Shown: positions 20,445 through 48,042 of the stretch, one piece after another
Numbering within the stretch: position 1 is the first letter of the stretch
Layout of the letters: each line of letters opens with the position of its first letter
Source of the DNA: a bacterium
Lineage (GTDB): Bacteria > Zhuqueibacterota > Zhuqueibacteria > Oceanimicrobiales > Oceanimicrobiaceae
Direction of reading: 5' to 3'
Assembly: GCA_037446635.1 (NCBI GenBank)
Contig: JBBIIG010000001.1
Coordinates: 149,638-213,637 of the forward strand
Length of the DNA stretch: 64,000 nt
Translations under genes and position numbers: made by a program
Notes under the pieces: generated by a model
Seen by the model: only the letters and a program-made list of their open reading frames with translations
Told to the model about the DNA's origin: nothing
Databases searched by the model: none

Positions 20445-21986
20445 ATGTTCGCAAAAGCGTTGGGCGCCGCGGTATTAGGAATCGATGCCTACCTGGTTGA
20501 GGTAGAGGCTCACCTCGAGAGCCAGCTTCCATACTTCGCGACGGTTGGTTTACCAGAGGGCGCGGTAAAAGAGTCGAAAGAGCGTGTATCCGCTGCTATA
20601 AAAAATTGCGGTTTCAAATTTCCACAAAAGCGCATCACCATCAACCTGGCGCCAGCGGATATTAAAAAAGAGGGCTCGGCGTTCGATCTTCCCATCGCTA
20701 TCGGAATTCTTGCGGCGATGGGACAGGTGTCGCCTGACCATCTTAATGATTTCGTCATCCTCGGGGAACTGTCGCTCGATGGCAGCCTGCGCCCCATTCG
20801 CGGCGCCCTACCCATCTCATTGGCGGCAAAAAAGGGCGGTAAAAAAGGAATTCTCCTACCAAAGCCCAACGCCAAGGAAGCCGCCATCACCACCGGCATC
20901 GATGTTTTTCCGATGAGCAATCTCGCGGAGACAGTCGATTTCTTAAACAGTGCGCTCACAGCCCAACCGTTCAGACTGAATGTGCTGGAAATTTTTTCGC
21001 AAAGCCGAAATTATGTGATTGACTTTGCGGACGTGAAAGGCCAGGAGCACGTGAAACGTGCGTTGGAAATCGCGGCCGCGGGCGGGCATAATCTGATCAT
21101 GATCGGCCCTCCTGGCTCCGGTAAAACCATGTTGGCAAAACGACTGCCCTCCATTCTGCCGGATTTGACTCTTGACGAGGCTCTGGAGACAACGAAGATC
21201 CACTCGGTTGCGGGGCTACTTCCGCCGGACACGGCTTTGATTGCTACGCGTCCGTTCCGTAACCCGCACCACACCATCAGCGACGCCGGACTCATCGGCG
21301 GCGGCAAGGTTCCCAAACCCGGCGAAGTCAGTTTGGCAAATCACGGCGTTCTCTTTTTGGATGAATTGCCGGAATTCAAAAAAAATGTACTTGAGGTCAT
21401 GCGGCAGCCGCTTGAAGATGGCAAAGTCACCATTTCGCGCGCATTGCTTTCGCTCACATATCCGGCTGAAATCATGTTAGTCGCCGCAATGAACCCCTGC
21501 CCGTGCGGTTTCAATGGCGATCCCAACAACCAGTGCTCATGCACGCCACCGCAAATTCAAAAATATTTGGCCAAAGTTTCCGGACCGTTGTTAGACCGCA
21601 TCGACATTCATATTGAAGTACCGGCTGTACGCTACAAAGAATTGTCCAGCGAAATTTCCGGAGAAAATTCCGCAACGATTCGTGAGCGCGTTAAACGCGC
21701 CAGAGAGATTCAACTCCAGCGCTTTCACGCAAGGAAGAATCTATTTTGCAACGCCCGCATGGAATCGAAAGAAATTCGTCATTACTGCAAAATTGATGAA
21801 CAGGGCCACGAATTGTTGAAAATGGCGATCACAAAATTAGGTTTGTCAGCGCGCGCTTATGATCGAATCTTGAAAGTCTCTCGCACTATCGCGGATCTGG
21901 AGGGCTCAGAAGAGATTCGTCCAGAATTCGTCAGCGAAGCGATTCAATACCGCAGTTTGGATCGAGAATTGAGGACGGGATTTTAG
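20445..21986 (+). CDS. comM: ComM/YifB Mg-chelatase-like AAA+ ATPase (intact)
   Basis: [74 protein letters not shown]. Confidence 0.97.
21489..21986 (+). repeat. Left copy of the 498-bp comM 3' direct repeat
   Basis: Colinear and gap-free with 47545-48042 by manual codon alignment. Confidence 0.95.
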
Positions 21987-22079
21987 TGAACACGGGTCAA
22001 AAGCTCCAGACGTTCCTTTTTGGGGACTCGACGGCGATACTCGGGATCGTTGTGTTCTCCAGCGGTCAAGAGCGGGCAC

Positions 22080-24041
22080 TCATCGTGACCGCTCCAGCAC
22101 GACGACGGACCGTGGTGCGACCTCATAATGCAACCCATCGACGGCCCGCGTTGCTAAATCCTGGCGGCTGGTATCCACGACACAGTTCCAAGGGCCAGGC
22201 TGCTGGATTTGGAATTGCACCGGCTCCCAGAAGGCGTTGATCATGACGTAAAGGTCGCTCACGCCACGCAAACAATAAGCCAGACAGCGCGAATTATAAT
22301 CCACCGGGCCGGTCGCGCCGTACCAGTTCACCGCCTCGCGCCAAAACCGGCCGGAGGCGATTTCCGGGTGAGCTTTGCGGAACGCAATCATGCGTTGAAA
22401 AAACTGAAAGATGTCCCGGTTTTTTTCCAACAGCAACCAATCCAGCCATGTCGTCTCGTTGTCCTGGTTGTATGGGTTGTTGTTACCGCGTTGCGTGTTG
22501 AGAAATTCGTCGCCCGCGCAGAACATCGGTGTGCCGTTCGACAACATCAGCAGACAGAAGAAGTTCTTCACCTGTTGCCGGCGCAATGCGATCACCTCGG
22601 CGGGCGTGCCCGCATCGCCTTCCCAACCACAGTTCCAGCTCACATTGTTGTCCGTGCCATCCGTGTTGTTGTGTCCATTGGCGGCGTTGTGTTTTTGGTT
22701 GTAGGCGACGAGATCGTAGAGACAGAAGCCGTCGTGGGCCGTGATGAAGTTGACGCTCTGATAGGGCCGATAAACATCGCCGGGGCCGTCGGGAAACAAA
22801 TCATCGCTCCCGTACAATCGCTGCATCAGCGTGCCGACTTTGCCAGCATCGCCACGGATAAAGGCGCGCACATCATCCCGGTATTGGCCGTTCCACTGCC
22901 CCCAGAGCCAGCCCGGATAACTTCGGCCTAACAGATTCACCCCGATGTCCCACGCTTCGGCCACGACTCGGAAATCCCCCGCGATTGCGAGGGCGGTGAT
23001 CTCGCTAACGAGCGCAGCCTCCTCGGTCTGCGCTTGTCCGTGAATGTCGCGAGCCATGACCGACGCCAAATCGAAACGAAAACCATCCACGCCGAGATTC
23101 GCCCAATGACGCAGGCTTTGCAAGATCAGCGCCCGTGTGCCGTCGTGAGCGCACCGCAACGTGTTGCCGCAGCCGGTATCGTTCCAGTAGTGTCCGTCCG
23201 GTCCGAGCAGGTAGTAACTGCTGTTGTCAATCCCGCGCCACGAATAGGTCGGGCCAGTATGATCGCCTTCGCATGTATGATTGTACACCACGTCGAGCCA
23301 GCCCTCGATTCCCGCTGCGTGAAATGCCCGGACCATCTGGCGAAACTCGGCCACCGCATCGCGCACCGCGTAACCTTGATGCGGCGCAAAAAAGTTCAAC
23401 GTCATGTAGCCCCAGTAGTTGCCCTCCTGCGGATCAAACTGATGGACCGGCAACAACTCGACGACGGTCACGCCGAGCTTTTTTAGGTAAGGAATCTTCT
23501 CGATCAATCCGAGAAACGTCCCGCGCCTTTCCTTAGTCACGCCGGAGTTCGCACGCGCCGTGAAACCTTTGACATGCAACTCATAAATCACAATCTCGTG
23601 CCACGCACGCCGGGGCCGCGAGCTTTTTTCAGGCACCAGCTTCCTCATGGGCAACACCCCAAGCGGCGCGCGTCCATCGTTCGCGCCCGGCTGCATCGCG
23701 GTCGCACGCGAAAATTCCGGCGGAAAGAACACTTCTGTGGCAAACGGGTCGAGCAACACCTTTTGCGCGTCAAACCGGTGCATCGCCCCGGTTGGGCCTT
23801 CGACCCGGTAGGCGTAGTATCGTGCCCCTGACGCCGCTGACTGCAACACGAAGCAATGCCAGATCCGTCCTGTTTTGTTCTGGAATGGATCGAGCCGAAG
23901 TTCGAATATTGGCTTTACGAAATCGTTGCGGTCGTACAACAGCAACGTTACGCGGGTGGCGTGTCGAGAGTACAACGTGAAGTTCCATCCATCGCCCGTC
24001 CATGTTGCTCCTGCCGGAACCGGTTGACCTTCGGTGTTCAT
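22080..24041 (-). CDS. glgX: Glycogen debranching enzyme/isoamylase (GH13)
   Basis: IYELHVKGFT, NYWGY, DVVYNHT, DGFRFDLA, AEAWD, NFITAHDGF; start overlaps the pfk stop (ATGA). Confidence 0.93.
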   Translation of the reverse strand: MNTEGQPVPAGATWTGDGWNFTLYSRHATRVTLLLYDRNDFVKPIFELRLDPFQNKTGRIWHCFVLQSAASGARYYAYRVEGPTGAMHRFDAQKVLLDPFATEVFFPPEFSRATAMQPGANDGRAPLGVLPMRKLVPEKSSRPRRAWHEIVIYELHVKGFTARANSGVTKERRGTFLGLIEKIPYLKKLGVTVVELLPVHQFDPQEGNYWGYMTLNFFAPHQGYAVRDAVAEFRQMVRAFHAAGIEGWLDVVYNHTCEGDHTGPTYSWRGIDNSSYYLLGPDGHYWNDTGCGNTLRCAHDGTRALILQSLRHWANLGVDGFRFDLASVMARDIHGQAQTEEAALVSEITALAIAGDFRVVAEAWDIGVNLLGRSYPGWLWGQWNGQYRDDVRAFIRGDAGKVGTLMQRLYGSDDLFPDGPGDVYRPYQSVNFITAHDGFCLYDLVAYNQKHNAANGHNNTDGTDNNVSWNCGWEGDAGTPAEVIALRRQQVKNFFCLLMLSNGTPMFCAGDEFLNTQRGNNNPYNQDNETTWLDWLLLEKNRDIFQFFQRMIAFRKAHPEIASGRFWREAVNWYGATGPVDYNSRCLAYCLRGVSDLYVMINAFWEPVQFQIQQPGPWNCVVDTSRQDLATRAVDGLHYEVAPRSVVVLERSR

Positions 24042-25291
24042 AATTCCTCCGGTTGGCCAGTGGCGGCCAGTGTCCCGCTCCATACGGGGCCGGCGGGGTC
24101 AACGGATTTCTTGCGGCTGGCGAGCAATTCGATAGGGAGGTGAATGAACTCGTCATGCAGGAATCCAATTACCAGCCCGGTTTTGCCGGCCATGGCGGCG
24201 TGGACGGCGTTGCGGGCGAACAAATCGCAAAGGATCGAGTCTTCGCTGTTCGCTGGGCAGCTGCGCACGTGGTAACTCGGGTCGAAGTAGCGCATCACGA
24301 TGGGAATCTTCTCCGCTTTGAAATACGCCTCTATCTGACCACGTAGGAAAGATCCGATATCGCCGAGTTTCACATTTCCGGAGGCATCGCGCTCCGCTCC
24401 CACGTTGCCTAACCAGTCCTGCCCAACGCCCTCGGACACGACAATCACGGCGTGCGCGCGCTTCAGAATCCGCTCCTTCAATGCCGCCAGAAAATTGTCG
24501 AGCTTAAACGGCACTTCCGGGATGAGGCAGAAGTTTACCTCTTGGCTTGCCACCGTCGCACCAACGGCGATGAAGCCGGCGTGACGCCCCATCACTTTCA
24601 CCAATGCGATGCCGTTGTGCACGCTGCGGGCCTCCGCGTGCGCGCGGTCGAGCACAGACGCCGCCTCCTGGACCGCAGTCAGATAACCAAAAGTACGTGC
24701 CACGAACGCCACGTCGTTGTCTACGGTTTTGGGGATTCCGACCACCGCCAGCGCGTGACCACGCTGCTGGGCCAATTGAAAAAGCTCGTTGCCACCCCGC
24801 TGCGTGCCGTCGCCGCCGACGGTGAAGAGGATGTTCACTCCAATCCGCGCGAGGTTTTCGACGGCAGCTACCGTGTTCACCGGCCCGCGCGAAGTGCCAA
24901 GCACTGTACCTCCGCGGCGATGAATATCGTTGACGAACTCGGGCGTCAGCCGAATCGGTGTTTGTCCGTTCTCCGGATCGAGTCCGGGATAGCCGCCGCG
25001 AAAACCGAGTACCTCTTTCACACCATAAGCGTGGTGCAGTTCGTTGAACAACGACCGGATGACGTTGTTCAGGCCAGGACACAGCCCACCGCAGGTGACA
25101 ATTCCCGCCCGCGTCCGTGCTGGATTGAAGAACAATTTGGCGCGCGGCCCGGCCATCTCGAATTCCCACTCCTGCCCCGACCTCGGCTGGCCGTGAATGA
25201 TCAGCTCAGGCACGGACAATTCGTCGCTAACGAAACGGCTCAATGGCGAGGGATAGCGAGGTTCTCCCAAGGTTGTTATTCGATGAAGCAT
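24038..25291 (-). CDS. pfkA: 6-phosphofructokinase, ATP-type GGDG motif
   Basis: TCGGLCPGLN, GGTVLGTSRG, GGDGT, PKTVDND, MGRHAG. Confidence 0.92.
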   Translation of the reverse strand: MLHRITTLGEPRYPSPLSRFVSDELSVPELIIHGQPRSGQEWEFEMAGPRAKLFFNPARTRAGIVTCGGLCPGLNNVIRSLFNELHHAYGVKEVLGFRGGYPGLDPENGQTPIRLTPEFVNDIHRRGGTVLGTSRGPVNTVAAVENLARIGVNILFTVGGDGTQRGGNELFQLAQQRGHALAVVGIPKTVDNDVAFVARTFGYLTAVQEAASVLDRAHAEARSVHNGIALVKVMGRHAGFIAVGATVASQEVNFCLIPEVPFKLDNFLAALKERILKRAHAVIVVSEGVGQDWLGNVGAERDASGNVKLGDIGSFLRGQIEAYFKAEKIPIVMRYFDPSYHVRSCPANSEDSILCDLFARNAVHAAMAGKTGLVIGFLHDEFIHLPIELLASRKKSVDPAGPVWSGTLAATGQPEEL

Positions 25292-25317
25292 GGTTCAGCT
25301 CCTTGTGGATTATAGCG

Positions 25318-26493
25318 TTATCGCTCCTGGAGTACGGCGACGCCTGGGAGTTCTTTCCCCTCGAGAAACTCCAACGACGCACCGCCGCCGGTCGAAATAT
25401 GCGTCATCTGCTTCGCCATTCCCGCTTGCTCGACCGCAGCCGCGGAATCACCGCCGCCAATAATCGTCGTCGCTCCTGACAGTTCAGCCAGCGCACTGGC
25501 AATCGCAAACGTTCCGGCAGCGAAAGGCTCCAATTCGAAGACTCCCATTGGTCCGTTCCACACGACGGTTTTCGCCTCGCGCAGATGTTGTGTGAAGAGC
25601 TCCACCGTCTGCGGTCCGATGTCGAGGATGCGCCAGCCGGTTGGGACAGCCTCTACACTGACCACACGCATTTGCGCCTTGGCATCCAGGCTATCCGCAA
25701 CTACGACATCCACCGGCAGGATTAGCTTGGAGCCGCCGTCGCGCAGCAATGTTCTGGCCTCCTCAAGTTTGTCATTCTCCACCAATGACTCTCCCACTGC
25801 TTTGCCCTGCGCTTTTAGAAAGGTGTTGGCCATGCCACCCCCAATGAGCAACGAATCCACTTTCCCCAGCAGGTTGTGAATCACCGCGATCTTGTCGGAC
25901 ACCTTCGCGCCTCCCAGCACGGAGACGAACGGTCGCGCTGGTGCCGCAAGAGCCTTCCCAAGGAAGGCCAGCTCTTTCTCCATCAAAAACCCTGAGACTG
26001 CCGGCAGGTACGAAGTTACACCAACCGTTGAGGCGTGGGCACGGTGGGCAGAGCCGAAGGCGTCGTTTACGTAAATATCTGCCAACGAAGCAAGTGCCTG
26101 GGCAAACCGGGCGTCATTGGCCTCTTCCTCTGCATGAAACCGAAGGTTCTCGAGGAGCAAAACACCGCCGCGCGGCAGCTTTTTCGTCATGCCCTCTACT
26201 ACCGGTCCAATACAGTCGGGAGCCATCTGCACTGGACGATTGAGAAGTTGGCCGAGTCGCTCAGCCACGGGCCTCAGACTGTATTTTGCCTCGGGTTTTC
26301 CTTTCGGCCTGCCAAGGTGAGAGCAAAGAATCAGTTGAGCGCCACAGCCGAGTATGTACATGATGGTTGGCAAAGCGGCGCGGATGCGCGTGTCATCACT
26401 GACCCGGCTCTTCTCTAACGGCACGTTAAAGTCCACACGGACGAGCACGCGCTTGCCGGCCATATCGATATCGCGGACCGTCTTCTTGTTCAT
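25318..26493 (-). CDS. pgk: Phosphoglycerate kinase
   Basis: [43 protein letters not shown]. Confidence 0.98.
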
Positions 26494-26565
26494 TGTTACA
26501 TTCTCCTTAAATTATGAAGCAATTTCCTTTTGTCAATAGTTGTCTCCCAGGTGATTAGGAGCCGC

Positions 26566-26721
26566 CTACCTGCCGACAAGACTGGGCAGGGAAATGGTGA
26601 CACGACGAACGCCAACCGCTGCCGGTGTGGGCAGGCGCCCCCGGCCATGCAAAATCGCATTGACGATGCGAGCCAGCGCGCTGCTGATGCCGTAATAGGT
26701 CGCGCCTCTGCCGCTGATCGT
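26566..26721 (-). pseudogene. ldh: Relic of an L-lactate dehydrogenase C-terminal region
   Basis: Reads ISGRGATYYGISSALARIVNAIL...VTISLPSLVGR, matching the LDH KGATYYGI..ALARI...IL...SLP motif; no N-terminus. Confidence 0.75.
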
Positions 26722-26744
26722 GCAAACCGTACCAAAAACAACTC

Positions 26745-27761
26745 TTAACGAGTACCCTTCGTTGCCACATACTGAATCAAGTCCGCTACGCGAACGGAAT
26801 AGCCCCATTCGTTGTCATACCACGACACGACCTTCGCCAGGTTGCCGCCGATTACCAGTGTGTCGAGGGCGCTGAAGATCGAGGAGTGCGCATCGCCTTT
26901 GAGATCGCTGGAAACCAGTGGCTCTTCGGAATAGGCCAGAATGCCTTGCATGGGGCCTTTGGCGTATTGTTTCATCGCTGCATTGATCTCTTCGACCGTT
27001 GCATTCTTCGACAGCACGGCGGTGAAGTCAATCACCGAGACGGTGGGAGTCGGCACGCGGAACGCCATGCCGGTGAACTTTCCTTTCAGTTGCGGAATCA
27101 CCAGTCCCACTGCTTTGGCCGCGCCGGTTTCGGAGGGGACGATGTTCATCGCTGCCGCACGGGCATCGCGCGGATCTTCGGCTTCGAGATCGAGTAGCCG
27201 CTGTGAGTTGGTGTAGGAATGCACCGTGGTCAGGATGCCTTTCTCGATGCCGAAATTGTCGAAAAGAACTTTGGCGACCGGAGCCAGTCCATTGGTAGTG
27301 CAGGAGGCGTTCGAAAGGATGTGATGTTTGGCGGGATCATACATCTTCTCGTTGACGCCCAGCACGATGGTCAAATCTTCCTCCTTAGCCGGCGCGGTGA
27401 TGATCACTTTCTTGGCGACGGCATTCAAGTGCAGCTGGGCCTTGTCCCGTTGCCGGAATAGGCCGGTGGATTCGACGACGATCTCAACACCCAGCTTGGC
27501 CCAAGGCAAGCGTGCCGGATCCCGTTCGGCCAGAATCTTGACCTCGTCGCCGTCGGCCACGAAGCTGTCTTCACGCGCCACCACTTCGCCTGGGAAACGC
27601 CCATAGTTCGTATCATACTTGAGCAGGTACGTCATGATTTTGATCCGGCCGATATCATTGACCGCAACGACGTCGATCTCTTTGTCGTAGCGCTCGCGGA
27701 TGGCTTTGTAAACTTGGCGGCCGATCCGTCCAAAGCCGTTGATTCCGATTCGAATTGACAT
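26745..27761 (-). CDS. gap: Type I glyceraldehyde-3-phosphate dehydrogenase
   Basis: [31 protein letters not shown]. Confidence 0.98.
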
Positions 27762-27921
27762 GGTTTCATCTCCTTAGTTTTTAAGTCCAAAATCGAGAGC
27801 CCAAAGAAAACACGAGCGTGAGGGCCACAATACCAGTCGCGATACAAATCGCAGCAAAGTATCGCGAGCGGATTTGCCGCTGCGATGCTTCAGAAGAGAG
27901 AATCATATTCAAAGTCCACAA

Positions 27922-28947
27922 TTACAGACACAGCGTGGTACCTGTTCCCCGCAACTCGCTGACAGCCTGCTTCACGCGCGCGGCCATGGCCGTTTCCGCC
28001 AGGGAGAGATAAGTGCGAGGATCGTACGCCTTTTTATTGCCAACCTCGCCATCCACCCGGAGAACACCGTCATAATTTTTGAAGAAATGATCCGCAACCG
28101 GCCGGCTGAAAGCATACTGCATGTCCGTGTCGATGTTCATCTTCACCACACCGTAGTCCACCGCTTCCTGAATCTCCTCGATGGTTGAGCCGGAGCCACC
28201 GTGAAAAACGAGATAGAAGCGGGCTTGCTCGCCGTATTTTTTCACCACCGCCTCCTGACAATCTCTAAGGACTTTTGGTTTCAGCTTGACCTGGCCGGGC
28301 TTGTAAACGCCATGAACATTGCCGAAGGTCGCTGCCAGCAGATACCGCGCTCCGGCAATGGCGTTGAGACGTTTCGCGACTTCCAGCGTGTCTTCCGGTG
28401 TCGTGTACAACTTATCCGCGGCATGGCCGGTAACACCGTCCTCCTCGCCGCCCACGACGCCCGTCTCGATTTCGAGGATAAGCTCATTCTTACGGAAGCG
28501 TTCGAGTAGTTTCACTGCAATGTCGAGATTCTCTTTCAGAGAAATGGTGCTGCCGTCGAACATATGGCTGTTGAACAGGTTCGGCTTGCCTGCCGCCCGC
28601 CGCCGTTCTGTCTCTTCCACTAACGGTATGACGAATTTGTCGAGCTTGTCGGCCAAGCAGTGGTCGGTGTGGAGGGCGACGTAGATCGGGTAACGTTCGG
28701 CAACACGATGAACATGTTCGGCCAATGAAATCGCACCGAGCGCCATGTCCTTGACCGACGATCCCGATGCAAACGCGCCACCGCCGGTCGAGAGTTGGAT
28801 AATGCCATCACTCTTGCTTTCAGCCAAGCCCCGCAGCACGGCATTGGCAGAGGTCAGGGAGCTAACGTTGATCGCGGGATAGGCAAAATGCTTCTCCCGC
28901 GCGTGTTCCAACATTTTGCAGTAGATTTCATAATTTGCAACTGGCAT
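27922..28947 (-). CDS. fbaA: Class II fructose-bisphosphate aldolase
   Basis: HTDHC, SHMFDG, GGEEDG, FGNVHGVY, FHGGSG, KMNIDTD. Confidence 0.96.
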   Translation of the reverse strand: MPVANYEIYCKMLEHAREKHFAYPAINVSSLTSANAVLRGLAESKSDGIIQLSTGGGAFASGSSVKDMALGAISLAEHVHRVAERYPIYVALHTDHCLADKLDKFVIPLVEETERRRAAGKPNLFNSHMFDGSTISLKENLDIAVKLLERFRKNELILEIETGVVGGEEDGVTGHAADKLYTTPEDTLEVAKRLNAIAGARYLLAATFGNVHGVYKPGQVKLKPKVLRDCQEAVVKKYGEQARFYLVFHGGSGSTIEEIQEAVDYGVVKMNIDTDMQYAFSRPVADHFFKNYDGVLRVDGEVGNKKAYDPRTYLSLAETAMAARVKQAVSELRGTGTTLCL

Positions 28948-29030
28948 ATTTTTTCTCCTGAGAAATTTTCATGCACGATCTTTCCGTATCGCGCCCAGGG
29001 CGGCGCTGAGCGCGACACAAAGCAATGCCA

Positions 29031-30707
29031 TCATTGAAACAGCACCAGCGCCAGAACCTGCGCGCACAGAATGCGCAGCAACGTCGTCAATGGATACACC
29101 GTCGCATAGGCCACCGTCGGGGCGTCCGACTTGGTGATGTTCGTCGCGAACGCGAGCGCGGGCGGATCGGTGACGCTGCCGGCGATCAATCCGGTCAACA
29201 TCGCGTAGTTCGTCTTCAATACGGCGCGCGCGAACAGGCCCATCAACATCAGCGGCAGAATCGTGACACACAGACCGACGCCCAACCAGAGCAGCCCATT
29301 GGAGCTGAATACGCTCGCAAAGAACCTCGGCCCGGCCGCCAGTCCGACCGCTGCGAAAAACAGCGCAATGCCAAACTCGCGGAATGCCAGGTTGGCATTC
29401 ACCGGCATGTGACAGGCAAGCTTGCCGATGCGGCCGATTCGCCCGAGCACCAGCGCAACCATCAGCGGACCACCGGCCAGTCCCAGCCGGACCGGTTGCG
29501 GCAGTCCGGGAAAAGCAATCGGTATGGTCCCGGCCACGATTCCAAGAAAGATCCCGATGAACAGCGGAATGAAATGGGTTTCATTGAGTTCCTTGACTGA
29601 GTTGCCCAGCAGCTTCGTCGTCTTCTCCAGACTGGCTTGGTCGCCCACCACCTGCACCATATCGCCGAACTGCAGGCGCAAATTGTCGACCGCGGCCAAA
29701 TCGATGTCGGCGCGCGTGACGCGGCTTACGACAGCGCCGTGGCGCGTGGCGAGCGCGAGTTCGCCGAGCGTCTTGCCAAGCACGTCCTTGTGGGTGACGA
29801 CCACTCGACGGAACGTCACGTTGCCAGGCGCCCGGCGCAAATCCTCGTCGCTGCGCCGGCCGACAACGCGCTGGAATTTGTCGAGCCCGGCGCACGTGCC
29901 GACCGCGACAATCGCATCTCCGGTTTGCAGCACTGTGTTGCCGGCCGCCACATGAACTTCAGTTTCGCCGGCGCGGCGATGGCGCGACACGGTCACGCCG
30001 GTTTCCACGCGCGATGGAATGTCGTCGATCATCACGCCGGCCAGATTCGGGTTCTCGACAACGAGCGTGCGGTTCTCCAGTGGCTCGACCCGCCCGCGTT
30101 GTTCTTCCGCGAATGCCACGGCCTCGCGCGGCGCGTCAATCCGAAATATAGCCTTCAACACGAGCAATGTGCCGATGATGCCCACAATCGCGCCGGGATA
30201 TGAAACCGCGTACGCCAAGGCCGGCAGCGTCAACCGGTCTTTGGCGATACCGGGGATCGTCGCGAGCGTCTGTTGCGCTGCGCCGAGCGATGGCGTATTC
30301 GTGGTCGCGCCGGACAACAAGCCCAGCACGGCAGCAAAATCCATCTTGAGCAGCCAACCCAATGCGAGCGCCAGTGCCGTGCCCGATAATACCCCCGCCG
30401 CGGCGATGAGATTGAGCGTCAGGCCCTGTCGTCGAAACGCGGCAAAGAAGCCCGGCCCGAGTTGCAGGCCGATGGTGAAGACGAAAAGAATCAACCCGAA
30501 CTCTTTCACGAACTCCAGCGTGTGGTGGTCAACCGGTTTGCCGAGATGGCCGGCGATGATTCCGGCAAACAGCACGCCCGCTGTGCCCAAGCCGACGCCG
30601 CGCACTTTGAGGCTGCCGAGCGCCATCCCAGAAAAACAAACCAGCGCGAGGACGGCAACCGCGTGCGCGACGGGGTTGATGGTGGGGAGTTGAAAAAGCC
30701 AATTCAT
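29031..30707 (-). CDS. AspT/YidE/YbjL-family transporter with two TrkA-C domains
   Basis: FGLILFVFTIGLQLGP, GATTNTPSLGA, GSVTDPPALAFA, YATVYPLT. Confidence 0.9.
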   Translation of the reverse strand: MNWLFQLPTINPVAHAVAVLALVCFSGMALGSLKVRGVGLGTAGVLFAGIIAGHLGKPVDHHTLEFVKEFGLILFVFTIGLQLGPGFFAAFRRQGLTLNLIAAAGVLSGTALALALGWLLKMDFAAVLGLLSGATTNTPSLGAAQQTLATIPGIAKDRLTLPALAYAVSYPGAIVGIIGTLLVLKAIFRIDAPREAVAFAEEQRGRVEPLENRTLVVENPNLAGVMIDDIPSRVETGVTVSRHRRAGETEVHVAAGNTVLQTGDAIVAVGTCAGLDKFQRVVGRRSDEDLRRAPGNVTFRRVVVTHKDVLGKTLGELALATRHGAVVSRVTRADIDLAAVDNLRLQFGDMVQVVGDQASLEKTTKLLGNSVKELNETHFIPLFIGIFLGIVAGTIPIAFPGLPQPVRLGLAGGPLMVALVLGRIGRIGKLACHMPVNANLAFREFGIALFFAAVGLAAGPRFFASVFSSNGLLWLGVGLCVTILPLMLMGLFARAVLKTNYAMLTGLIAGSVTDPPALAFATNITKSDAPTVAYATVYPLTTLLRILCAQVLALVLFQ

Positions 30708-32284: not shown

Positions 32285-32300
32285 ATTTTCACCTATTTTG

Positions 32301-34784: not shown

Positions 34785-34882
34785 GTATTCACCTTTATAA
34801 TTGCACCATACTGAAGTCCTTTAGAAAACCCGACAGGCCAAGGCCTTTTGAGTCATGAGTGATCTGGCCGAGCAAGTCAGCT

Positions 34883-39292: not shown

Positions 39293-39317
39293 GACTCTGT
39301 TCCTTTTTAGGTTAAAT

Positions 39318-40430
39318 TCATCTGCTGGTCTGCTCTTCCGTTGCCGATACAGCCAGCCCGTCTCTGAGCTTTGTCTGTCCGGCCAGCACGATCAGTTCGT
39401 CACCGGAAAGCCCGCTTTTTATCTCGACGTCGTTGTCGATGAGCGCTCCGACGTCCACACGCTTGGCATACACCCGCTTCTGGTCGGGATAATAGACGAA
39501 GACCTGCGTCGCGCCTTGTGGATCACGGACCACCGCACCCCCCGGAAGCGTCACCATCGCTATCGTCCGGTCCCCGCGGATGGTTGCTTTCGCGACCATC
39601 CCAACACGCAAGAGGTGTTCGGGATTTGCCACGGTGATTCTGGTCATGTAGGTCCGGGTGTTGGGATCGGCTGAAACGTTGATGACGCGAACCGTGCCCC
39701 GGAAAGACTTTCCCGGGAGGGCGGGAACGGTGATATCCGCTTGTTGCCCGATCCTAACGCTGTGAACGTCCGTCTCCGGTACGCCAACATTCACCTCCAT
39801 CGGATCCATCTGGACGATCTCAAAGACGGGGTGTCCGGCAGCGGCGACGTCGCCGGGTTCAATCAACCTTTTGGCGATGTAGCCGCTGGCGGGGGCACGC
39901 AGGGTCCCATCCGTAAGACGCTTCCTGGACAGTTTCTCCGAGGCAACGGCGTGCTCGTGTTGCTGTACGGCGGCATCATACGCAGCCTTGTAGTTCAGAA
40001 AGTCGTTTGGAGCCAGGCTCTTCGAGTCGTAGAGCATCTTCATGCGCTGGAACTCGTCCTCTGCCCGCTCCAGGCGGACGCGGGCCTGATCTGCTTGCGC
40101 TTTGGCCGCCGCCAGGGCCAGATGGTAATCGGTCGAGTCAATTAAGGCAAGCACCTGCCCCTTCTTCACGAATTCCCCTTCCCGCGGCCCCACGAACACC
40201 ACCTTGCCGGATACGAGAAAACCCACCTGCGCAGGGGAGTTCGGCGTCGAAACCGTCCCGCTCACGGAGACGGTTTCCCTCTCCTGAACCTTTTGGACCC
40301 GTCCGACAATCACGGGGACGGCGACACTGTTCGATTCCTTGCTTTGTTTGTCACCTGTGCAGGCGGTCAGCGAGACCCCCAAAAAGGACAGGCAGACCGC
40401 TGCGACAACGGATGTAAGACTACTTTTCAT
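39318..40430 (-). CDS. RND periplasmic adaptor (MFP) lipoprotein
   Basis: LTAC lipobox, GEFVKKGQVLA, LRAPASG, ADPNTRTY, SGLSGDE. Confidence 0.92.
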   Translation of the reverse strand: MKSSLTSVVAAVCLSFLGVSLTACTGDKQSKESNSVAVPVIVGRVQKVQERETVSVSGTVSTPNSPAQVGFLVSGKVVFVGPREGEFVKKGQVLALIDSTDYHLALAAAKAQADQARVRLERAEDEFQRMKMLYDSKSLAPNDFLNYKAAYDAAVQQHEHAVASEKLSRKRLTDGTLRAPASGYIAKRLIEPGDVAAAGHPVFEIVQMDPMEVNVGVPETDVHSVRIGQQADITVPALPGKSFRGTVRVINVSADPNTRTYMTRITVANPEHLLRVGMVAKATIRGDRTIAMVTLPGGAVVRDPQGATQVFVYYPDQKRVYAKRVDVGALIDNDVEIKSGLSGDELIVLAGQTKLRDGLAVSATEEQTSR

Positions 40431-40477
40431 TTTATGGCGCTCCTTTACCTTAAATAAGAATGAACTGATTTGTCGGC

Positions 40478-40834
40478 TTAGTTGATTTTGTTTCGATTTA
40501 GAATTTTCTGGATGCAATAGTTGATAGCATCGTCATCCTGACTCCCCTGAATAATGTCGTCAGCAATCCACGAACGAAAATCATGTTGCATATCATCGTT
40601 ACCCCCCAGAAATAAAATCTTGACGCCCTTCAAATTGGGTGCTATTTGCACAACTTCATCGAGACTGTGCTCGTCCATGTCAACAACGAGCATATCCAAC
40701 TGTGATTTTGTTATCACTGCGGGAATTTGGTCGAGTGTGTCAGTGATAGAGACGGTGTGTCCTTGGCGCTGTAAAAGGGCAGTCAGCAAGCTGTTTCTTT
40801 GCGCGTCACTTTTAACTAGGATGATTCGAGACAT
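40478..40834 (-). CDS. Atypical single-domain receiver (CheY-like) protein
   Basis: IILVKSD...DMLVVD...ILFLGG pattern; acidic pocket and conserved Lys degenerate. Confidence 0.6.
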   Translation of the reverse strand: MSRIILVKSDAQRNSLLTALLQRQGHTVSITDTLDQIPAVITKSQLDMLVVDMDEHSLDEVVQIAPNLKGVKILFLGGNDDMQHDFRSWIADDIIQGSQDDDAINYCIQKILNRNKIN

Positions 40835-40925
40835 TTTGATTACTCCCTTCAAATTTGACCGTTCAATCAAAACAAGAATATTTGTTCTTGCCGCCATCGC
40901 CCCGGTCTCTCTACCCTTGCTATGG

Positions 40926-40957
40926 CATCTCCGGCTGGATCGCTCCAGCCGGAGATG
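40926..40957. other. 14-bp perfect hairpin in the leader of the receiver-MFP-RND operon
   Basis: CATCTCCGGCTGGA-TCGC-TCCAGCCGGAGATG. Confidence 0.8.
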
Positions 40958-41045
40958 AGGAGGAAGGGATGTTGGGGGCTCTGCTCAAAGCAACTCAGAT
41001 TATGATTTGCGCTGGCTGAACTGTTGTTTGCTCTGGCCATACTTT

Positions 41046-41061
41046 ACCAAGTGTCGTGCCA
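41046..41061 (-). promoter_or_regulatory. Sigma54-like -24/-12 promoter (copy A)
   Basis: TGGCACGACACTTGGT. Confidence 0.6.
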
Positions 41062-41169
41062 AGTGTATTTTGGCAGAATTTAGGTCTATGTAAGCGCTTT
41101 TTATATATGGAGTTATGTAGAATGATAAAAGAACGCGGTCAAGGCATGAAAAACGACGGGCTTTGTGAG

Positions 41170-41190
41170 ATATCAAAAGTTTTATGATAT
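41170..41190. promoter_or_regulatory. Candidate upstream activator site (copy A)
   Basis: ATATCAAAAGTTTTATGATAT, an imperfect dyad; 18/21 identical to 45168-45188. Confidence 0.6.
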
Positions 41191-41198
41191 ATCATAAT

Positions 41199-41348
41199 TC
41201 ATAAAAACATGAGACGAATTCCTAATTTTTTCATGCGGAAAGCAGGGTTCAGACAATTGATTCCGAGAATTTAGGCAGCACATCCAGACCGCTAACCCGG
41301 CGCGTGAAGTCGAGGGCTTTCAAATGTGCGGCGTTCCAATTCAGTCAA
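41199..41348 (-). pseudogene. Relic of the Fis-HTH 3' end of a sigma54 activator, paralogous to 45193-46614
   Basis: Across frameshifts reads LTELER / KALDFTRRVSG / AA*ILGIN...RMKKLGI, versus the intact LTEVER...[11 protein letters not shown]...AAQILGIN...RMKKLGI. Confidence 0.8.
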
Positions 41349-41377
41349 TTGGCACTACGAAGAAAATGGGCGGATCG

Positions 41378-41576: not shown

Positions 41577-41665
41577 ATTTTTAACTCCATTTTGCTGCTT
41601 CTTTAGTATGAAACGCGGTAAAGTGACCGCTAACTAGCAGGCGCATGTGAAGCTAAACCTTTGCG

Positions 41666-42047
41666 TCAGTCCCAACTTTTAATCCGCAATGGAGCCAACT
41701 TCCAGCGTTCGTTTTCCACGAAGGCTGCCAAAGCGGTCAGAACGATGGTCATTGGCAGGGCGAAAAACTCACCACGAATGATATGGAGTATGGATGCGCT
41801 CGTCATAATGAACCCGAGGCCACCGGCAGCGACCGCTGTCAACTGTGGAAAAACCCCCGTGGCCGCTGGCACAATCAGTCCAATGGCAGCGAGCAACTCG
41901 CCGATGCCAATAAAACGCACCAATCCGGCCGGCACGTCGGCTACCCAGTGGATCGTCTTCGCCAGGAAGTCAAGTTGAAACGTCATCATGAAACCCGCTA
42001 TCAAGAAGAATCGCGAGGAAAGCCTGAGCAATCCACAAGAGCATATT
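41666..42047 (-). pseudogene. Frameshifted DoxX-like membrane protein
   Basis: NMLLWIAQAFLA in one frame continues as FFLIAGFM...LVRFIGIGELLAAIGLIVP in another. Confidence 0.7.
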
Positions 42048-42473
42048 CGAGTAGCTGCTGATTGGCAGATTGCTATCCTCAGAAATGAGTCTTACCTTAT
42101 CACCATCCTTAATTTTGGAGCCACCTCCGGTGACAATCAGGTCGCCTTCCTCAATCCCTTGCAGTATCCTCAAACCTTTTGAGGAAAAATCACTTATTTC
42201 GACGACTTGTCGTCGGGCAATTCCGAATCCCGGCTCGGTCGGTTCAATTAGGTACACGTAGGGGCCGCGGTAATCGGCATTAACTGCATGAGATGGAACA
42301 TAAATAGCTCCATCTTGCTCCTCGCTGGCAAATACTTTTTCATAATACACGGGATGAATGAGAGGTTGAGCCACCTTTTCCTCCTTCGTGCAAGAGCACA
42401 ATGTTACTGCTGTCAGGAAAGCCATAATGGCGGGCAGGAACCAAATACTATGGGATTGTAAATTCATTGTCAT
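41970..42473 (-). CDS. Internally deleted MFP-like lipoprotein running into the DoxX N-terminus (possibly a pseudogene)
   Basis: LCSC lipobox and PVYYEKV joined directly to IYVPSHAV...GIEEGDLIVTGG..KIKDGDKVRL. Confidence 0.6.
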   Translation of the reverse strand: MTMNLQSHSIWFLPAIMAFLTAVTLCSCTKEEKVAQPLIHPVYYEKVFASEEQDGAIYVPSHAVNADYRGPYVYLIEPTEPGFGIARRQVVEISDFSSKGLRILQGIEEGDLIVTGGGSKIKDGDKVRLISEDSNLPISSYSNMLLWIAQAFLAILLDSGFHDDVST

Positions 42474-42610
42474 TGTTGAGGTCCTCATTTTATTTTCTGT
42501 CATTAAACCTGGACGGCCAACTCTGATCTAGTCTTCCTCGTACCTTTTTTTGTATAAAACCATTGTCTCGTTGTGACTTTCTCAAAGAATGGCGCTGATA
42601 CCGGCCAGCG

Positions 42611-42802
42611 CTAATGTTTACTCACCAAGAAGCCGGACACAATAAATGCGATCACCACGAACATCAGGGCTTCATAGTGCGGGTTACTGAACCATGTGCA
42701 ACATCTGTCAAGCAGGCCCTGGAGTTTGCCATTTTGATCGAGCAAAGAGCGCATGATACCCATTACAATTGTCCAGCCAAACCAGCGTTTGATACTTCGC
42801 AT
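42611..42802 (-). CDS. Small membrane hypothetical protein
   Basis: AAGGAG upstream of MRSIKRW; C-terminal hydrophobic segment. Confidence 0.4.
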   Translation of the reverse strand: MRSIKRWFGWTIVMGIMRSLLDQNGKLQGLLDRCCTWFSNPHYEALMFVVIAFIVSGFLVSKH

Positions 42803-42873
42803 GTAAAATCTCCTTTCACTCAACTTTTGACATCAAGATTAATTCTCCACCCTTACGAAAGCCAGGATTCCAA

Positions 42874-43422
42874 TCAGATCGTCGGCGGAAACTTTGCGAG
42901 AATTTCGACAATGGCTTCATCGAGTTTTCTATTAAGCGCTTTGGCTGATGCGTTCGGATCGAGCGTTCCAATCGCGACGCCACGCCACACCAACTGTTTA
43001 GTACGGGCATCGATGATGTCGAGGATCAACGTCCCTTCTTTGAATTGATGGACATCAACGCGGTCGCCACCAAACCACCGGCCAAAGCGTCCATGACCAT
43101 ACCCCCAATCCGTGACATCGATCCTGTCTTGCGCGCCCACGTGATAAGCGACCAGGAAGTCCGGGCTGGTTGCATCCTTGGTGAATCCTTTGGCGGCCAA
43201 ATGGCGATCAGCGGATTGTTTGATGCGCTTGTCCAACAGGCTGTTACTCTGCAAGGCAGCTTCCACGCTGCCTGTGCCGTTGATTGGCGCAGACATCCAG
43301 GCGTAGGTTTTGAAGGCCGCAAAGTTGGCTTCACTGTCATAGTCATGCTTGACGCTCACGGGTGAACAACCGATGGCCAACGCCAGCAGACTTAGGGTCA
43401 GAGACAGAACTGTGGTTTTCAT
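42874..43422 (-). CDS. DUF4136 family lipoprotein
   Basis: IGC lipobox, DYDSEANFAAFKTYAW, EGTLILDIIDARTKQLVWRG. Confidence 0.88.
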   Translation of the reverse strand: MKTTVLSLTLSLLALAIGCSPVSVKHDYDSEANFAAFKTYAWMSAPINGTGSVEAALQSNSLLDKRIKQSADRHLAAKGFTKDATSPDFLVAYHVGAQDRIDVTDWGYGHGRFGRWFGGDRVDVHQFKEGTLILDIIDARTKQLVWRGVAIGTLDPNASAKALNRKLDEAIVEILAKFPPTI

Positions 43423-43438
43423 ATAAGACTCCCCTGTT

Positions 43439-43999
43439 TCAATGAATCGCCTGGCTTGCCGGAGGTGTGCGGTATTTAACCAGGCGGACTTGCGTTCCCT
43501 TTCTGCGTTCAGAGGCAAAGTAAACCTGATCCATCACTAAGATCATCAGTAGGACGCCGCAATCTCCTTGCTGCAGTCTTGAAAGAAGCCTCCTGGCGTT
43601 TCGCTTTTTGTACTGCTTGTGATAAAAGCCTTGACCTTGATCACTCACTGCCACCGTCAGCTTTTGATTGTCAATTGTTATCCGAAGGTGAAGACGCTTG
43701 CTCTCGTCTTTAGTCTGTAGGTGTTTAATCGCCTTCACGCAGGCCTGCTCAACCGCAACCTCAATATCTATCACCGCCGTTTCGTCAAAACCCGCTTTTT
43801 GAGAAATCGTGGCGACGAAGCTGCGAATTGGTTCCAGATTTTCGGTATGGCTCGGGATTGTCAGCTCATAAACGTCCCCCATATTGGCTAAGCCAGTCAC
43901 TGTCTTTGAGAGATCATTGGGCGCGCTCGCAAGAACATCTGTGGAAACGTCACTTGCATTCGCCACAAAGCCCCTGAGTGTAGTTTGATTTTGAAACAT
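43439..43999 (-). CDS. RsbW-like anti-sigma factor (HATPase_c), degenerate
   Basis: IRSFV...DIEVAVEQACVKAIKH, VSDQGQGF, G..LM...MDQV, GTQVRLVK. Confidence 0.75.
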   Translation of the reverse strand: MFQNQTTLRGFVANASDVSTDVLASAPNDLSKTVTGLANMGDVYELTIPSHTENLEPIRSFVATISQKAGFDETAVIDIEVAVEQACVKAIKHLQTKDESKRLHLRITIDNQKLTVAVSDQGQGFYHKQYKKRNARRLLSRLQQGDCGVLLMILVMDQVYFASERRKGTQVRLVKYRTPPASQAIH

Positions 44000-44141
44000 C
44001 GCTTTTTCCTTTCCAAGTACATAACTTGAGCGTAAACGGCCTGATAAGCAAAGCGGAAGATGAAGTTTGATTGCAGAACAGACGTCGGAATTACCGATCA
44101 TAGCAAATGTACCTCTGCTTGCCAGTCCGCCATATTGGGCG

Positions 44142-44606
44142 TCAAGTCCTTTCTTCTATCAGCCATTCCATTACTCCTTCTCTCCCTTGCACGCGCTGTA
44201 TGCGTTGCTCTGAATGTGCTTTCTGCCGTCCATCCAAGCTCAACGCGCCAGCGCCGAAGTAAGAGATGAGAAGCGCAGCACCCAACATAGAGAGATTCTT
44301 CATAAACATCACCTGATGCATCTGGGCCAACATGCTATCCTGTACAGCCCAGAAGTTGTGCATCATCACCGTGACCGGCAACAGGAACAATACCAGTAGC
44401 GACGCGCCCAATTTGGCTTTATAACCGAGGGCGATGCTGAGACCTCCCAAGAGTGCGATCACTCCGGAGAGCGGAACTGCCATCGAAGCCAATGGGATTC
44501 CCTGTGCTGCTGCATGTTCAATTGTCTGCTTCGAAAAAAGGCTGATGCCGGCCATCATGAAGATGAGCGAGAAGAAAATTCTTCCAATCAGTACTGTGTA
44601 CTTCAT
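44142..44606 (-). CDS. DoxX family membrane protein
   Basis: LIGRIFFSLIF, HNFW, MFMKNLSMLGAAL, GAGALSLD. Confidence 0.9.
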   Translation of the reverse strand: MKYTVLIGRIFFSLIFMMAGISLFSKQTIEHAAAQGIPLASMAVPLSGVIALLGGLSIALGYKAKLGASLLVLFLLPVTVMMHNFWAVQDSMLAQMHQVMFMKNLSMLGAALLISYFGAGALSLDGRQKAHSEQRIQRVQGREGVMEWLIEERT

Positions 44607-44622
44607 TGTTGTAATCTCCTTG

Positions 44623-44982
44623 TTAGCTTCTTGAAGGAGACAATCGGTCTCCTTCTTTTTTAGTGATCAGTTTCCGAATAATGCTTTCGACCTCAACGCG
44701 CGGAAACGTGCCCGCCAACGACTCAACCAGTTTTCCATCCCGGAAAAAAAGAATCGTCGGGCTAGTAAAAATTCGAAAGCGTTCGGCGGTTTTTGGGTTT
44801 TCACGCGTATTGATGCGGCAGAACTTCACCCGTTGGTTATACTGTTCGTCCAGTTTCACCAAACCCGGTTCGATGAGATAGCGGTTACTGAAATTCTCAT
44901 CGTAAAATATGACCAATACAATTCTGCCCGGAGCCACAAGCTCAGCATCAAAATTTCGGTCTGTCAATGCCTTCGAAGCCAT
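44623..44982 (-). CDS. Thioredoxin-fold protein lacking CXXC
   Basis: LTDRNFDAEL, VLVIFY, cis-Pro SPTILFFRDGK; the active-site position reads DENFSNR. Confidence 0.8.
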   Translation of the reverse strand: MASKALTDRNFDAELVAPGRIVLVIFYDENFSNRYLIEPGLVKLDEQYNQRVKFCRINTRENPKTAERFRIFTSPTILFFRDGKLVESLAGTFPRVEVESIIRKLITKKEGDRLSPSRS

Positions 44983-45043
44983 TCGAATCACCCCACGTTG
45001 GTTACCATCTGCTGACTTTTGTTAATCACTCGCCATATCAGAT

Positions 45044-45059
45044 ATCAATTGATGTGCCA
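45044..45059 (-). promoter_or_regulatory. Sigma54-like -24/-12 promoter (copy B)
   Basis: TGGCACATCAATTGAT. Confidence 0.6.
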
Positions 45060-45167
45060 ACGGTATTTTTGGGAGATTGTAGCCGATGTAAGTAGCTTTT
45101 CCTACATGATGTTGCGGGATAAATCAAAAAAGGGAAGCAAGGAGGGAAGACAGCAAGTTTTTATGAA

Positions 45168-45188
45168 ATATCAAAAATTTTATGACAC
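45168..45188. promoter_or_regulatory. Candidate upstream activator site (copy B)
   Basis: ATATCAAAAATTTTATGACAC; same 109-bp offset from the TGGCAC box as copy A. Confidence 0.6.
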
Positions 45189-45192
45189 CTCA

Positions 45193-46614
45193 TCATTCGT
45201 TTGATGCAACACGTTGAATCCCCAATTTCTTCATGCGGGAAACCAAAGTTTGGGGATTGATTCCGAGGATTTGAGCAGCGCCATTCGGACCACTGACACG
45301 CCAGCGTGTGGAATCCAGCACCTGCAAGATGTGAGCACGTTCCACTTCCGTCAAGGTGCGATGTCGCTTCTCATCTTCTCTCTGCGATTCGCCCCGAAAC
45401 CAATTGCCGATTTCGAGCCGATTGCCATGAGACAGTATCACGCCGCGTTCGATGATATTTTCCAACTCACGAATATTGCCGGGCCAATTGTAATTCTCCA
45501 AAGTAGACAAAACACTGCGGGGGATGACTTTGATTTCCCGTCCAATTTTCTTGGCGTATTTCCGGACAAAGTAATCCACCAGCAGCGGGATGTCTTCCCG
45601 TCTTTCGCAGAGCGGCGGGACATGGATGGGAAAAACGTTCAGGCGATAGAACAGATCTTCGCGGAAGGTCTTTTCGGCAACAGCCTTTTCCAGGTCGCGG
45701 TTGGTTGCCGCAATGATACGCACATCGGTGCTTAACGTTTGGGTGCCACCGAGACGTTCAAACTCACTGCTTTGGATTACCCGCAGTAATTTGACCTGCA
45801 TCTCAACCGGCAGTTCGCCGATTTCATCAAGAAAGATCGTGCCGCCGTTTGCCAGCTCGAAGCGCCCAACCTTGGATTTCAGCGCGCCAGTAAAAGCACC
45901 CTTTTCATGGCCGAAAAGCTCGCTTTCGATCAGGCTGGCTGGAAGCGCCGCACAGTTGACCTTAACCAAAGGGCGGTTATGACGCAAGCTAATGTTATGG
46001 ATGGCGCGCGCGATGAGCTCTTTGCCGGTGCCAGTTTCGCCCTGGATGAGAACGGTCGCGTCCGTCTCCGCGACGTGCTCGACCGCGTGCAGCACCTCTT
46101 GAATCCGACGGCTCTTACCGATAATCGCTTCAAAATTGTGCGTGAGCTTGATCTCCTGCTGCAAATAAACATTTTCCTCCTGCAGACGATTTTTTAACTG
46201 CTCTATTTCATTGAATGCTTTTTTTAGAGCTGCTTCAGCCTGGCGCCGTTCGGTGATGTCGCGCGCAAACCAGCAAACATATTCCTGGTTTTCGAATTCG
46301 ACCAGACTACCCGCGACTTCAACAGGAAGCTCCCGACCGTCCCTGGTCTCAATGGTTCGCTCGAATCGCACAGTACCATGCTGTCTCATATTCTCCCGAA
46401 GTTCCTCGACATAGGCGGGATCGAGTCCAAAGCCAAGTTCTGGCGGCTTTTTACCTACCATCTCCTCCGGCGCATAACCAACCATTCGGCAGGTTGCATC
46501 GTTGACGCGACGTATCGTATCTTCGGAGTCGATCCAGAGAATAGCGTCAGGATCTTTTTCGATGGTAAAGTGGGAAAGAAGTATGGTCCTTTCGAATTCT
46601 TTTGAGGCTTCCAT
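45193..46614 (-). CDS. PAS-domain sigma54-dependent transcriptional activator (FhlA/NtrC-type AAA+ with Fis HTH)
   Basis: PAS ending [45 protein letters not shown]. Confidence 0.95.
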
Positions 46615-47257
46615 AATTGGTTCCTACCTTCAAATTTTTTGGCAATTCTTACGGATTTCTGCGGTGCAACCTATGCCGTGGATGGTATGAGATCGTTTCT
46701 CCCGTCGCAACGAGAGATGTTCTCGCTATGATCAAATATACGAAAGCCGGTTCTCAAATCAAGCACATTTATTTAAATGGCAGGATAAGAACGACGGCCC
46801 AGGGCGAGTAACGTCATCCCACAATATTTTTGAGAAATCGAATCCGTTCTCTTGCCTTTTCCCAAAGCCCAGAACGCCTAAAATGCAGTCACTGGAAATG
46901 AGCAAAAGGATCCAAGCAACTTTGACTTCTGTCTTCTGACAACCCGTCTTGACATGAGCGCTGATTCTATTAGGTCAACAAAGTTTCCCAAGACGACTTT
47001 GCGTAGTAAAGCCCGCTACAGACTATTGGGAAATCGATCCAGGAAAGCCACACCGTGTTACTCGCCGAATCGTCGAGCAGATAAACCGGCTAAATACTTC
47101 GGCATCACCCTCCCAAGGCAGACAGAGGAACTCCCGCAGACTGGAGGGTCCGAGGGCAACAGATTGTTGACTTCTGACTGGAGGCACGACCGGTTACGCT
47201 CGGCGCCAGTTGCTACTGGTGGGGCTGAGTCTCCTAAAAATAGAAAGCCATAAATGT

Positions 47258-47458
47258 TCAGACACTATTGATGTTAGCCACTAACACCTTTTCATCTATC
47301 CCAACCACCTCGGCCAACTTACGCACATGTTTCCTCCTCGGCACCACCCTATCCAGTTCCCAATGGACGACGGACATTTCGTTGACGCCAAGAAGGTTCG
47401 CCAGTTGCACCTGGGAAAGGCCTTGTTCCTGACGGAATCTTTTGATATATTGCCCCAA
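47258..47458 (-). CDS. XRE-family helix-turn-helix protein (frame open upstream to 47566; true start uncertain)
   Basis: LGQYIKRFRQEQGLSQVQLANLLGVNEMSVVHWE. Confidence 0.8.
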   Translation of the reverse strand: MGQYIKRFRQEQGLSQVQLANLLGVNEMSVVHWELDRVVPRRKHVRKLAEVVGIDEKVLVANINSV

Positions 47459-47544
47459 TGTCTTTGCTTCGATAGGCTGAATGGGTTCGACCTTAGGAAT
47501 GCGGAAGCTGATTTTGAAGCACTTTTGGTATTTGTTAATGGGAG

Positions 47545-48042
47545 ATGAACGGGTGCCCGTGCGGGTTTAATGGCGATCCTCACAATGAATGCTCGTGCAC
47601 GCCGCCGCAGATCCAAAAATACCTGGCCAAAGTTTCCGGGCCGCTTTTGGATCGCATCGATATTCACATCGAGGTACCGGCGGTGCGGTATAAAGAACTG
47701 GCCAGCGACATTTCTGGGGAAAACTCTGCTACGATCCGTGAACGCGTCAAGCGGGCTCGAGAGCTCCAACTCAAACGCTTTCAGTCAAGGAAGAATCTCT
47801 TCTGCAACGCGCGGATGGAATCGAAAGAAATTCGTCATTACTGCAAAATTGATGAACAGGGCCACGAATTGTTGAAAATGGCGATCACGAAATTAGGGTT
47901 GTCGGCGCGCGCCTATGATCGCATTCTCAAAGTCTCGCGCACCATTGCCGATCTCGAAGGCTCCGAAGAAATACGCCCGGAGTGTGTCAGCGAGGCGATT
48001 CAGTATCGCAGTTTGGATCGAGAATTGAGGACGGGATTTTGA
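47545..48042 (+). pseudogene. comM: comM 3' fragment (165 codons, open frame); right copy of the direct repeat
   Basis: MNGCPCG...ELRTGF; 10 amino-acid differences from residues 349-513 of the intact gene by manual alignment. Confidence 0.93.
47549..47560. other. Putative att junction: 5-bp dyad around a central TG
   Basis: ACGGG-TG-CCCGT, versus ACCCC-TG-CCCGT in the intact comM. Confidence 0.6.

Follow-up and report, generated by a model that had tools for sequence, protein, structure and literature searches.

Insertions in the comM (yifB) gene are usually read as mobile DNA turning down natural transformation. A different outcome is known for e14 and phage 21 at icd, where the target gene stays intact and a displaced 3' fragment lies at the far end, the integrase and a replacement arm being carried within attP. 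We analyzed a comM locus of a bacterium of the Oceanimicrobiaceae (Zhuqueibacterota), contained in a stretch of 64,000 nucleotides (contig JBBIIG010000001.1 of assembly GCA_037446635.1, positions 149,638 to 213,637; hereafter the window), in which an intact comM is followed by a large cargo and a second comM 3' end. The interval probably represents the integrase-less remnant of an element of the large serine recombinase (LSR) type that had inserted in comM, with comM likely made whole again by taking its 3' third from a related lineage. What remains is likely the right attachment site, an XRE gene, the cargo and the displaced comM end.

Elements with an LSR are the closest described systems. 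The magnesium chelatase/ATP-dependent protease gene (comM/yifB) is a target of LSRs and accounts for 12.4% of the predicted site-specific integrases (Durrant et al., PMC10083194), and the same gene family is targeted by sr1WO of phage WO (PMC9203015) and by alphaproteobacterial pipolins (10.1101/2024.05.22.595293). These elements resemble our locus in the family of the target gene, in the inverted arms around a dinucleotide core and in a far-end XRE gene (the latter stated for sr1WO), but they split the gene and carry the LSR, whereas here comM is whole, its 3' third is present twice, and attL and the LSR are missing. The cis-mobilizable elements (CIMEs) and tandem accretion treated in PMC5704250 likewise involve integrase-less cargo between attachment sites that accumulates at a single target and can move together with an adjacent element; a CIME, however, keeps attL and attR, while at our locus a regenerated attB in a protein gene forms the left site and each unit carries ~500 nt of the target gene. 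The AbaR (Tn7-like) islands, which in the passages cited (PMC11472951, PMC11441513) also bring cargo to the comM of Acinetobacter, rely on a transposon mechanism and inactivate comM; here no transposase was found and comM is intact. Within the literature searched, with supplements (e.g. Durrant Supplementary Note 1) lying outside it, no description of comM-restored integrase-free remnants was found. Known LSR elements go most of the way to explaining the locus, as a grounded remnant of their family in which comM is spared.

Two comM ends at one locus

A first-pass annotation of the sequence had described a complete comM, then ~25.5 kb of cargo on the minus strand and, free of indels, a second comM 3' end of 498 nt, and all three were confirmed:

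20445..21986, + strand: intact comM/yifB, open frame of 513 amino acids (TIGR00368, 665 bits, cut-off 362)
21489..21986, + strand: repeat copy 1, the 3' third of the intact comM; identical to copy 2 over 21759-21832 and 21951-21984
21492..21508, + strand: attB-type site in the intact comM (NP/CPCG codons), core TG at 21498-21499, ordinary host right arm
47258..47566, - strand: XRE helix-turn-helix frame, reading away from attR (HTH_3, E 2e-9)
47530..47564, + strand: attR-type junction, with an element arm ending in AACGGG, core TG at 47554-47555, and the host arm
47545..48042, + strand: repeat copy 2 (from alignment), the orphan 3' third of comM, open for 165 amino acids
48208..48917: native flank, with a terminator-like hairpin (48208-48239), rpsU (48522-48707, + strand) and 6S RNA (48731-48917, - strand)

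The two copies align without gaps and share 417 of 498 nt (84%; blastn E 4e-156), the similarity running from the MN codons to the stop codon and no further. The repeat that had been proposed thus holds in length and continuity but is not near-perfect, the 16% divergence having gone unstated. Intact gene and fragment are separated by 25.5 kb, in which every nameable gene lies on the minus strand. Beyond the fragment the order is rpsU, 6S RNA and an S58 peptidase gene, and in five relatives (G003, G004, G008, G018 and G019; G and L numbers denote genomes and loci) the distance between comM and the S58 peptidase gene is 0.5-1.8 kb. Judged by gene order, the comM-rpsU region is the insertion point. 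No tRNA or tmRNA gene was found in the window.

The absence of a recombinase between the copies was also borne out. Serine recombinase domains (PF07508, PF00239) gave zero matches above cut-off in the entire genome, which is 97% complete, and the three matches to the tyrosine recombinase domain (PF00589) all lie outside the window. A profile of nine comM-associated LSRs, run over the six frames of 21.9-47.6 kb as the annotation had proposed, gave nothing better than E 0.2; the same profile detected a decayed control LSR at E 2e-22. The LSR gene expected of a comM-targeting element was therefore found neither in the interval nor in the genome. Among the open reading frames scanned there was no recombinase and no transfer gene, in line with the absence of integration and transfer genes that defines a CIME, and none of the cargo frames scanned belonged to the Tni/Tns transposition families. 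An attL with a truncated comM 5' part and an element right arm was not found at the left edge, where a plain attB is present instead. Just past the intact comM stop codon, at the left junction (21987-22000), a CACGGG hexamer resembles the element arm, possibly by chance.

The fragment starts at an LSR attachment site

A junction pattern was built from three junctions of the family and run against GTDB. It matched 107 loci, comprising 93 comM 3' fragments that begin at residues ~343-353, three whole genes and 11 loci without an overlapping comM match. A similar XRE gene was present beside 15 of the 83 fragments with enough flank, and at five an LSR read into the site. Fifty junction-bearing genomes, picked for long contigs or informative neighbours and not at random, were then searched with comM and PF07508. 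The LSR counts in this set refer to the matches listed (71 further LSR matches were unlisted), and the classes were read by eye from the tables: 19 genomes had a split comM, 16 an intact comM plus a fragment, and 15 were placed in neither class.

In the 19 split cases comM is cut at residues 347-368, and at least 11 have a convergent, opposite-strand LSR beside the cut and attL. Complete elements of the form comM5'-LSR...XRE-comM3' were recovered in G072 (22 kb) and G060 (73 kb). In elements that split comM, the core common to attL and attR is the TG within the first cysteine codon of NPCPCG, and the attL right arms mirror the element left arm at 11-12 of 18 positions in four of five sites, as against 4-6 of 18 for host arms. 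The junction in the window has the same NP/CPCG codons, core TG and element arm. Since the fragment starts at the core TG and element arm that form the attR of complete LSR elements, an LSR-element origin is indicated; as far as sequence comparison can tell, the left edge of the fragment is the attR of the elements that split comM in other phyla. This upholds what the annotation had offered as its alternative, namely a grounded integrative element that lost attL and integrase when comM was rebuilt.

The junction pattern was absent from viral contigs (0 loci) and a genus-specific comM pattern from metagenomes (0 loci). A narrower junction pattern matched three metagenomic loci, two of which share the junction of G009 while the third is unrelated.

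The XRE frame in the window lacks an ATG and has its first TTG at 47458. In many elements the XRE frame runs open through the attR core. Its start might come across attP in the excised circle, or the XRE protein may be a directionality factor. Two further observations concern the target. In L208 (G088:C1) and L206 (G046), LSRs adjoin comM pieces cut near the P-loop region, at residues ~190-250, a second target site. In addition, CLCG replaces CPCG in two intact comM genes (L040 and L041; G005 and G006) and in two family fragments (L031 and L035). Lying within the LSR target site, this change is possibly an escape mutation.

Whole comM genes with additional ends

The 16 genomes with an intact comM plus a fragment are labelled as Chloroflexota, Omnitrophota, Acidobacteriota, Bacteroidota and Binatia, and the layout recurs on single contigs of up to 4.8 Mb (G063). 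The annotation had called for the integrase to be tabulated across such layouts: an LSR match between intact gene and fragment was present in none of the nine single-contig cases, among the matches listed. In G078 and G085 several comM ends follow the whole gene. G075 carries a split comM with an LSR on one contig and four comM ends on another, three of them preceded by an XRE gene. The four 3' ends of this array (L198, G075:C2:1-18000; L199) are 71-89% alike.

A whole gene with a displaced 3' fragment at the far end is the arrangement of e14 and phage 21, and the attP right arm could likewise have brought a spare comM 3' end, so that integration kept the gene whole. The arm of the intact gene indeed mirrors the element arm at 11 and 13 of 18 positions in the Omnitrophota genomes G068 and G074, and at 10 of 18 in G085. 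In the window the value is 6 of 18, as in host arms and short of the 11-12 of 18 seen in attL; six of nine other comparisons and G010 give 4-6. Furthermore, integration has disrupted comM in all 19 split cases, and an LSR between an intact comM and its fragment was not seen (among the matches listed). Because the intact comM carries a plain target site, replacement is disfavoured here, and we consider it distinctly improbable for this locus. In G068 and G074 (L190:3377-4909 and L197, on the comM strand; also L227), non-canonical codons follow CPCG in the intact comM. They look as if an attL scar had been kept in frame in a working comM. Probably, several routes to a restored comM operate.

Origin and divergence of the two copies

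The mismatches between the two copies are distributed 12/3/66 over the three codon positions, and 156 of 166 codons translate alike. Synonymous (dS) and nonsynonymous (dN) divergence between them amount to 1.11 and 0.03, compared with 1.71 and 0.05 against the 5' part and ortholog of the congeneric G001, which is the same ratio; in the tree the copies form a supported clade (97/99). Considering the 84% identity and the nearly all-synonymous differences, the copies come from two related lineages and not from duplication in place. From this substitution pattern, both 3' copies appear to have evolved as working genes in related lineages. As the fragment shows no excess decay, it may have been orphaned recently, refreshed by recombination or kept under selection.

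The divergence is broken by two stretches of perfect identity, 74 and 34 nt long. None of 20,000 codon shuffles reached a run like the former, and the latter spans the comM tail that varies between genera. The tracts suggest scars of gene conversion or crossover, left by host recombination between the copies. Recombination of this kind is central to what the annotation had put forward, a cassette without recombinase that would loop out and go back into comM alleles by host homologous recombination over the 498-nt repeat. The exact tracts, one of them over the genus-variable tail, agree with it, as do the open, indel-free fragment and the recurrence of the layout in other genomes. Nevertheless, the repeat is only 84% identical, the edge of the fragment is set by the LSR attR core and not by homology, and decay or truncation is seen in many of the fragments elsewhere (G006, G009, G010, G058, G077). 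Neither a circular form nor an empty allele of this species was seen, reads having been compared at the left junction. Moreover, the genome's sole recognised class II aldolase sits in the island, so that loss of the island may be costly. We therefore regard such a cassette as improbable.

A chimeric assembly of two strains would also place two diverged comM ends in one contig. The assembly consists of 110 contigs, and among the matches listed from four read runs no contig bridges the left junction. On the other hand, copies that are 16% apart do not collapse in assembly, contamination is 0.3%, read runs X1-X3 contain contigs for the flank as well as the cargo, of similar depth, and the layout recurs on long single contigs elsewhere. 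A chimera is accordingly hardly credible.

How comM may have been restored

For the LSR-element remnant, a route can be drawn from standard reactions alone. A two-unit composite, consisting of an LSR unit, an internal attR with a donor comM end, a cargo unit and an XRE gene, would have entered the host comM from a congeneric donor. Excision between attL and the internal attR would then have removed the LSR-bearing front unit; in split elements the LSR unit sits beside attL. This would join the host 5' part to the donor 3' part at the core, and the cargo, the XRE gene, attR and, ahead of rpsU, the host comM end would stay behind. Unless an LSR came back, either in trans or with a new integration at the restored site, the island could no longer move, and occasional gene conversion between the copies by the host would account for the exact tracts. 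Arrays with several comM ends, as in G075, G078 and G085, agree with a composite of this kind, and PMC5704250 describes islands elsewhere that are mobilised in cis and tandems that excise in complex ways. We infer this partial excision with reserve, putting it somewhat short of an even chance.

The main competitor retains the LSR origin but has comM repaired by host recombination with transforming DNA of a relative, through recombination in the prkA-comM 5' region and an illegitimate join to the cargo near the stop codon, whereby attL and the LSR were deleted. The competence genes comEC and dprA are present with open frames, and the fragments of G010 and G006 are decayed sisters of their own intact comM ends (91% and 80%, respectively; in G010 the branch lengths are 0.10 versus 0.013). 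Yet a donor-host dS of 1.1 makes, on general grounds, a weak substrate for homologous recombination, and the duplication stops exactly at the stop codon here, and roughly so in G056, G078 and G075. Repair is in our estimate rather unlikely at this locus.

Several observations nonetheless count against the remnant as we reconstruct it. In G063 the duplicate extends ~730 nt beyond the stop codon at 98.9% identity, which fits recombinational repair. In the tree, the intact 3' ends of G068 and G074 group with the nearest relatives of the host and the fragments fall outside, and G009 shows a similar tendency (r 0.35 vs -0.20). The native copy was not told apart by codon usage, by the 68-nt overlap with G001, by distance correlation or by trees, and informative sites in G055 and G078 gave no call either; the G+C content at third codon positions (comM 5' part 0.60, fragment 0.60, intact 3' end 0.51) leans to the fragment as native. 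Among the matches listed in 167 genomes of the phylum (32 unlisted), no clearly split, LSR-flanked comM was present. Finally, the partial-excision route needs an earlier event that made the first internal comM end.

If partial excision is true, it offers a concrete path for domesticating integrase-free cargo at a recombination gene, and integrase-based island finders miss such islands. Here and in the 16 of 50 sampled junction genomes, the host keeps both cargo and a whole comM, which leaves the target site free for the next element. More tentatively, and with considerable doubt, comM may be a cross-phylum cassette platform, on which recombinase-free units, each made up in this order of a comM 3' end, cargo, XRE and attR, pile up behind an intact gene. 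In that case units would travel between species on comM-targeting LSR elements and stay after partial excision; large metabolic cargo would arrive with transformation spared, and lineages would exchange the C-terminal thirds of ComM. The recovered attB/attP pairs are directly testable with the LSRs found in these genomes.

Relatives in the family and phylum

Forty-one genomes were searched as relatives, including 21 of the same family. The only congener, G001 (74% complete), has little match to the cargo DNA; its comM is cut by a contig end and other genes lie upstream of its rpsU. A whole comM with a separate 3' piece is present in four of the 21 family genomes (G000, G006, G009 and G010). 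In G009 and G010 the fragment starts at residue 349, beside an XRE gene or XRE remnant. The comM ends of G010 lie on different contigs, linked via a cargo cluster collinear with that of G006, and this shared cluster behind comM is not accompanied by raised 3' similarity. The XRE search in the 41 relatives returned only G009 and a comM-free remnant in G019, and the LSRs of G003, G007, G013 and G039 are not adjacent to comM. Between G011 (L009/L075) and G010 (L033-L034) the comM 3' parts are 77% identical versus 70% for the 5' parts, the largest excess of 210 pairs, and possibly an old 3' swap.

Within the phylum, the junction pattern occurred in four of 167 genomes (G115 was not inspected) and the reversed-pattern control in none. 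The comM genes of these 167 genomes are nearly all whole among the matches listed. The phylum tallies take in two unpublished genomes.

Composition of the cargo

The cargo, made up of genes for sugar metabolism and stress, consists of two modules:

22080..40897, - strand: module 1, with a glgX-like gene, pfk, pgk, gap, class II fba (27922-28947), an AspT/YidE transporter and pckA, continued by glycogen phosphorylase, an RND permease-outer-membrane factor fusion (34883-39292), an HlyD adaptor and a receiver-like protein
41048..41062, - strand: sigma-54-type -24/-12 promoter-like site before module 1 (motif match)
41171..41350, - strand: decayed C-terminal remnant of a second sigma-54 activator, at the seam between the modules
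41666..46614, - strand: module 2, with DoxX proteins, DUF4136, an RsbW-like anti-sigma factor, thioredoxin and a PAS/sigma-54 activator (45193-46614)
45046-45060, - strand: sigma-54-type promoter-like site in module 2

The modules differ in G+C content, with 59% for module 1 (over 22080-40517) versus 49% for module 2. The promoter-like sites were found with what we take to be the sigma-54 -24/-12 motif, which gave two matches in the window versus 0.21 expected, one ahead of each module. The PAS/sigma-54 activator sits at the right end of the cargo. The RND permease and the outer-membrane efflux protein form a single frame of 1469 amino acids.

Further homologues of gap, pgk, pfk and pckA are present in the same genome. 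The class II aldolase of the island is its only PF01116 match, and such a match is absent in the four relatives tested; PF01950 is absent from all five genomes tested. Considering that G004 is likewise without a recognised aldolase, the sole aldolase in the island is not proof of essentiality. Relatives of this aldolase at 90-97% occur in other assemblies. Elsewhere in the window, at 4457-7174, two paralogous blocks lie ~2 kb apart with repeats that are 71-84% identical, probably a tandem gene pair.

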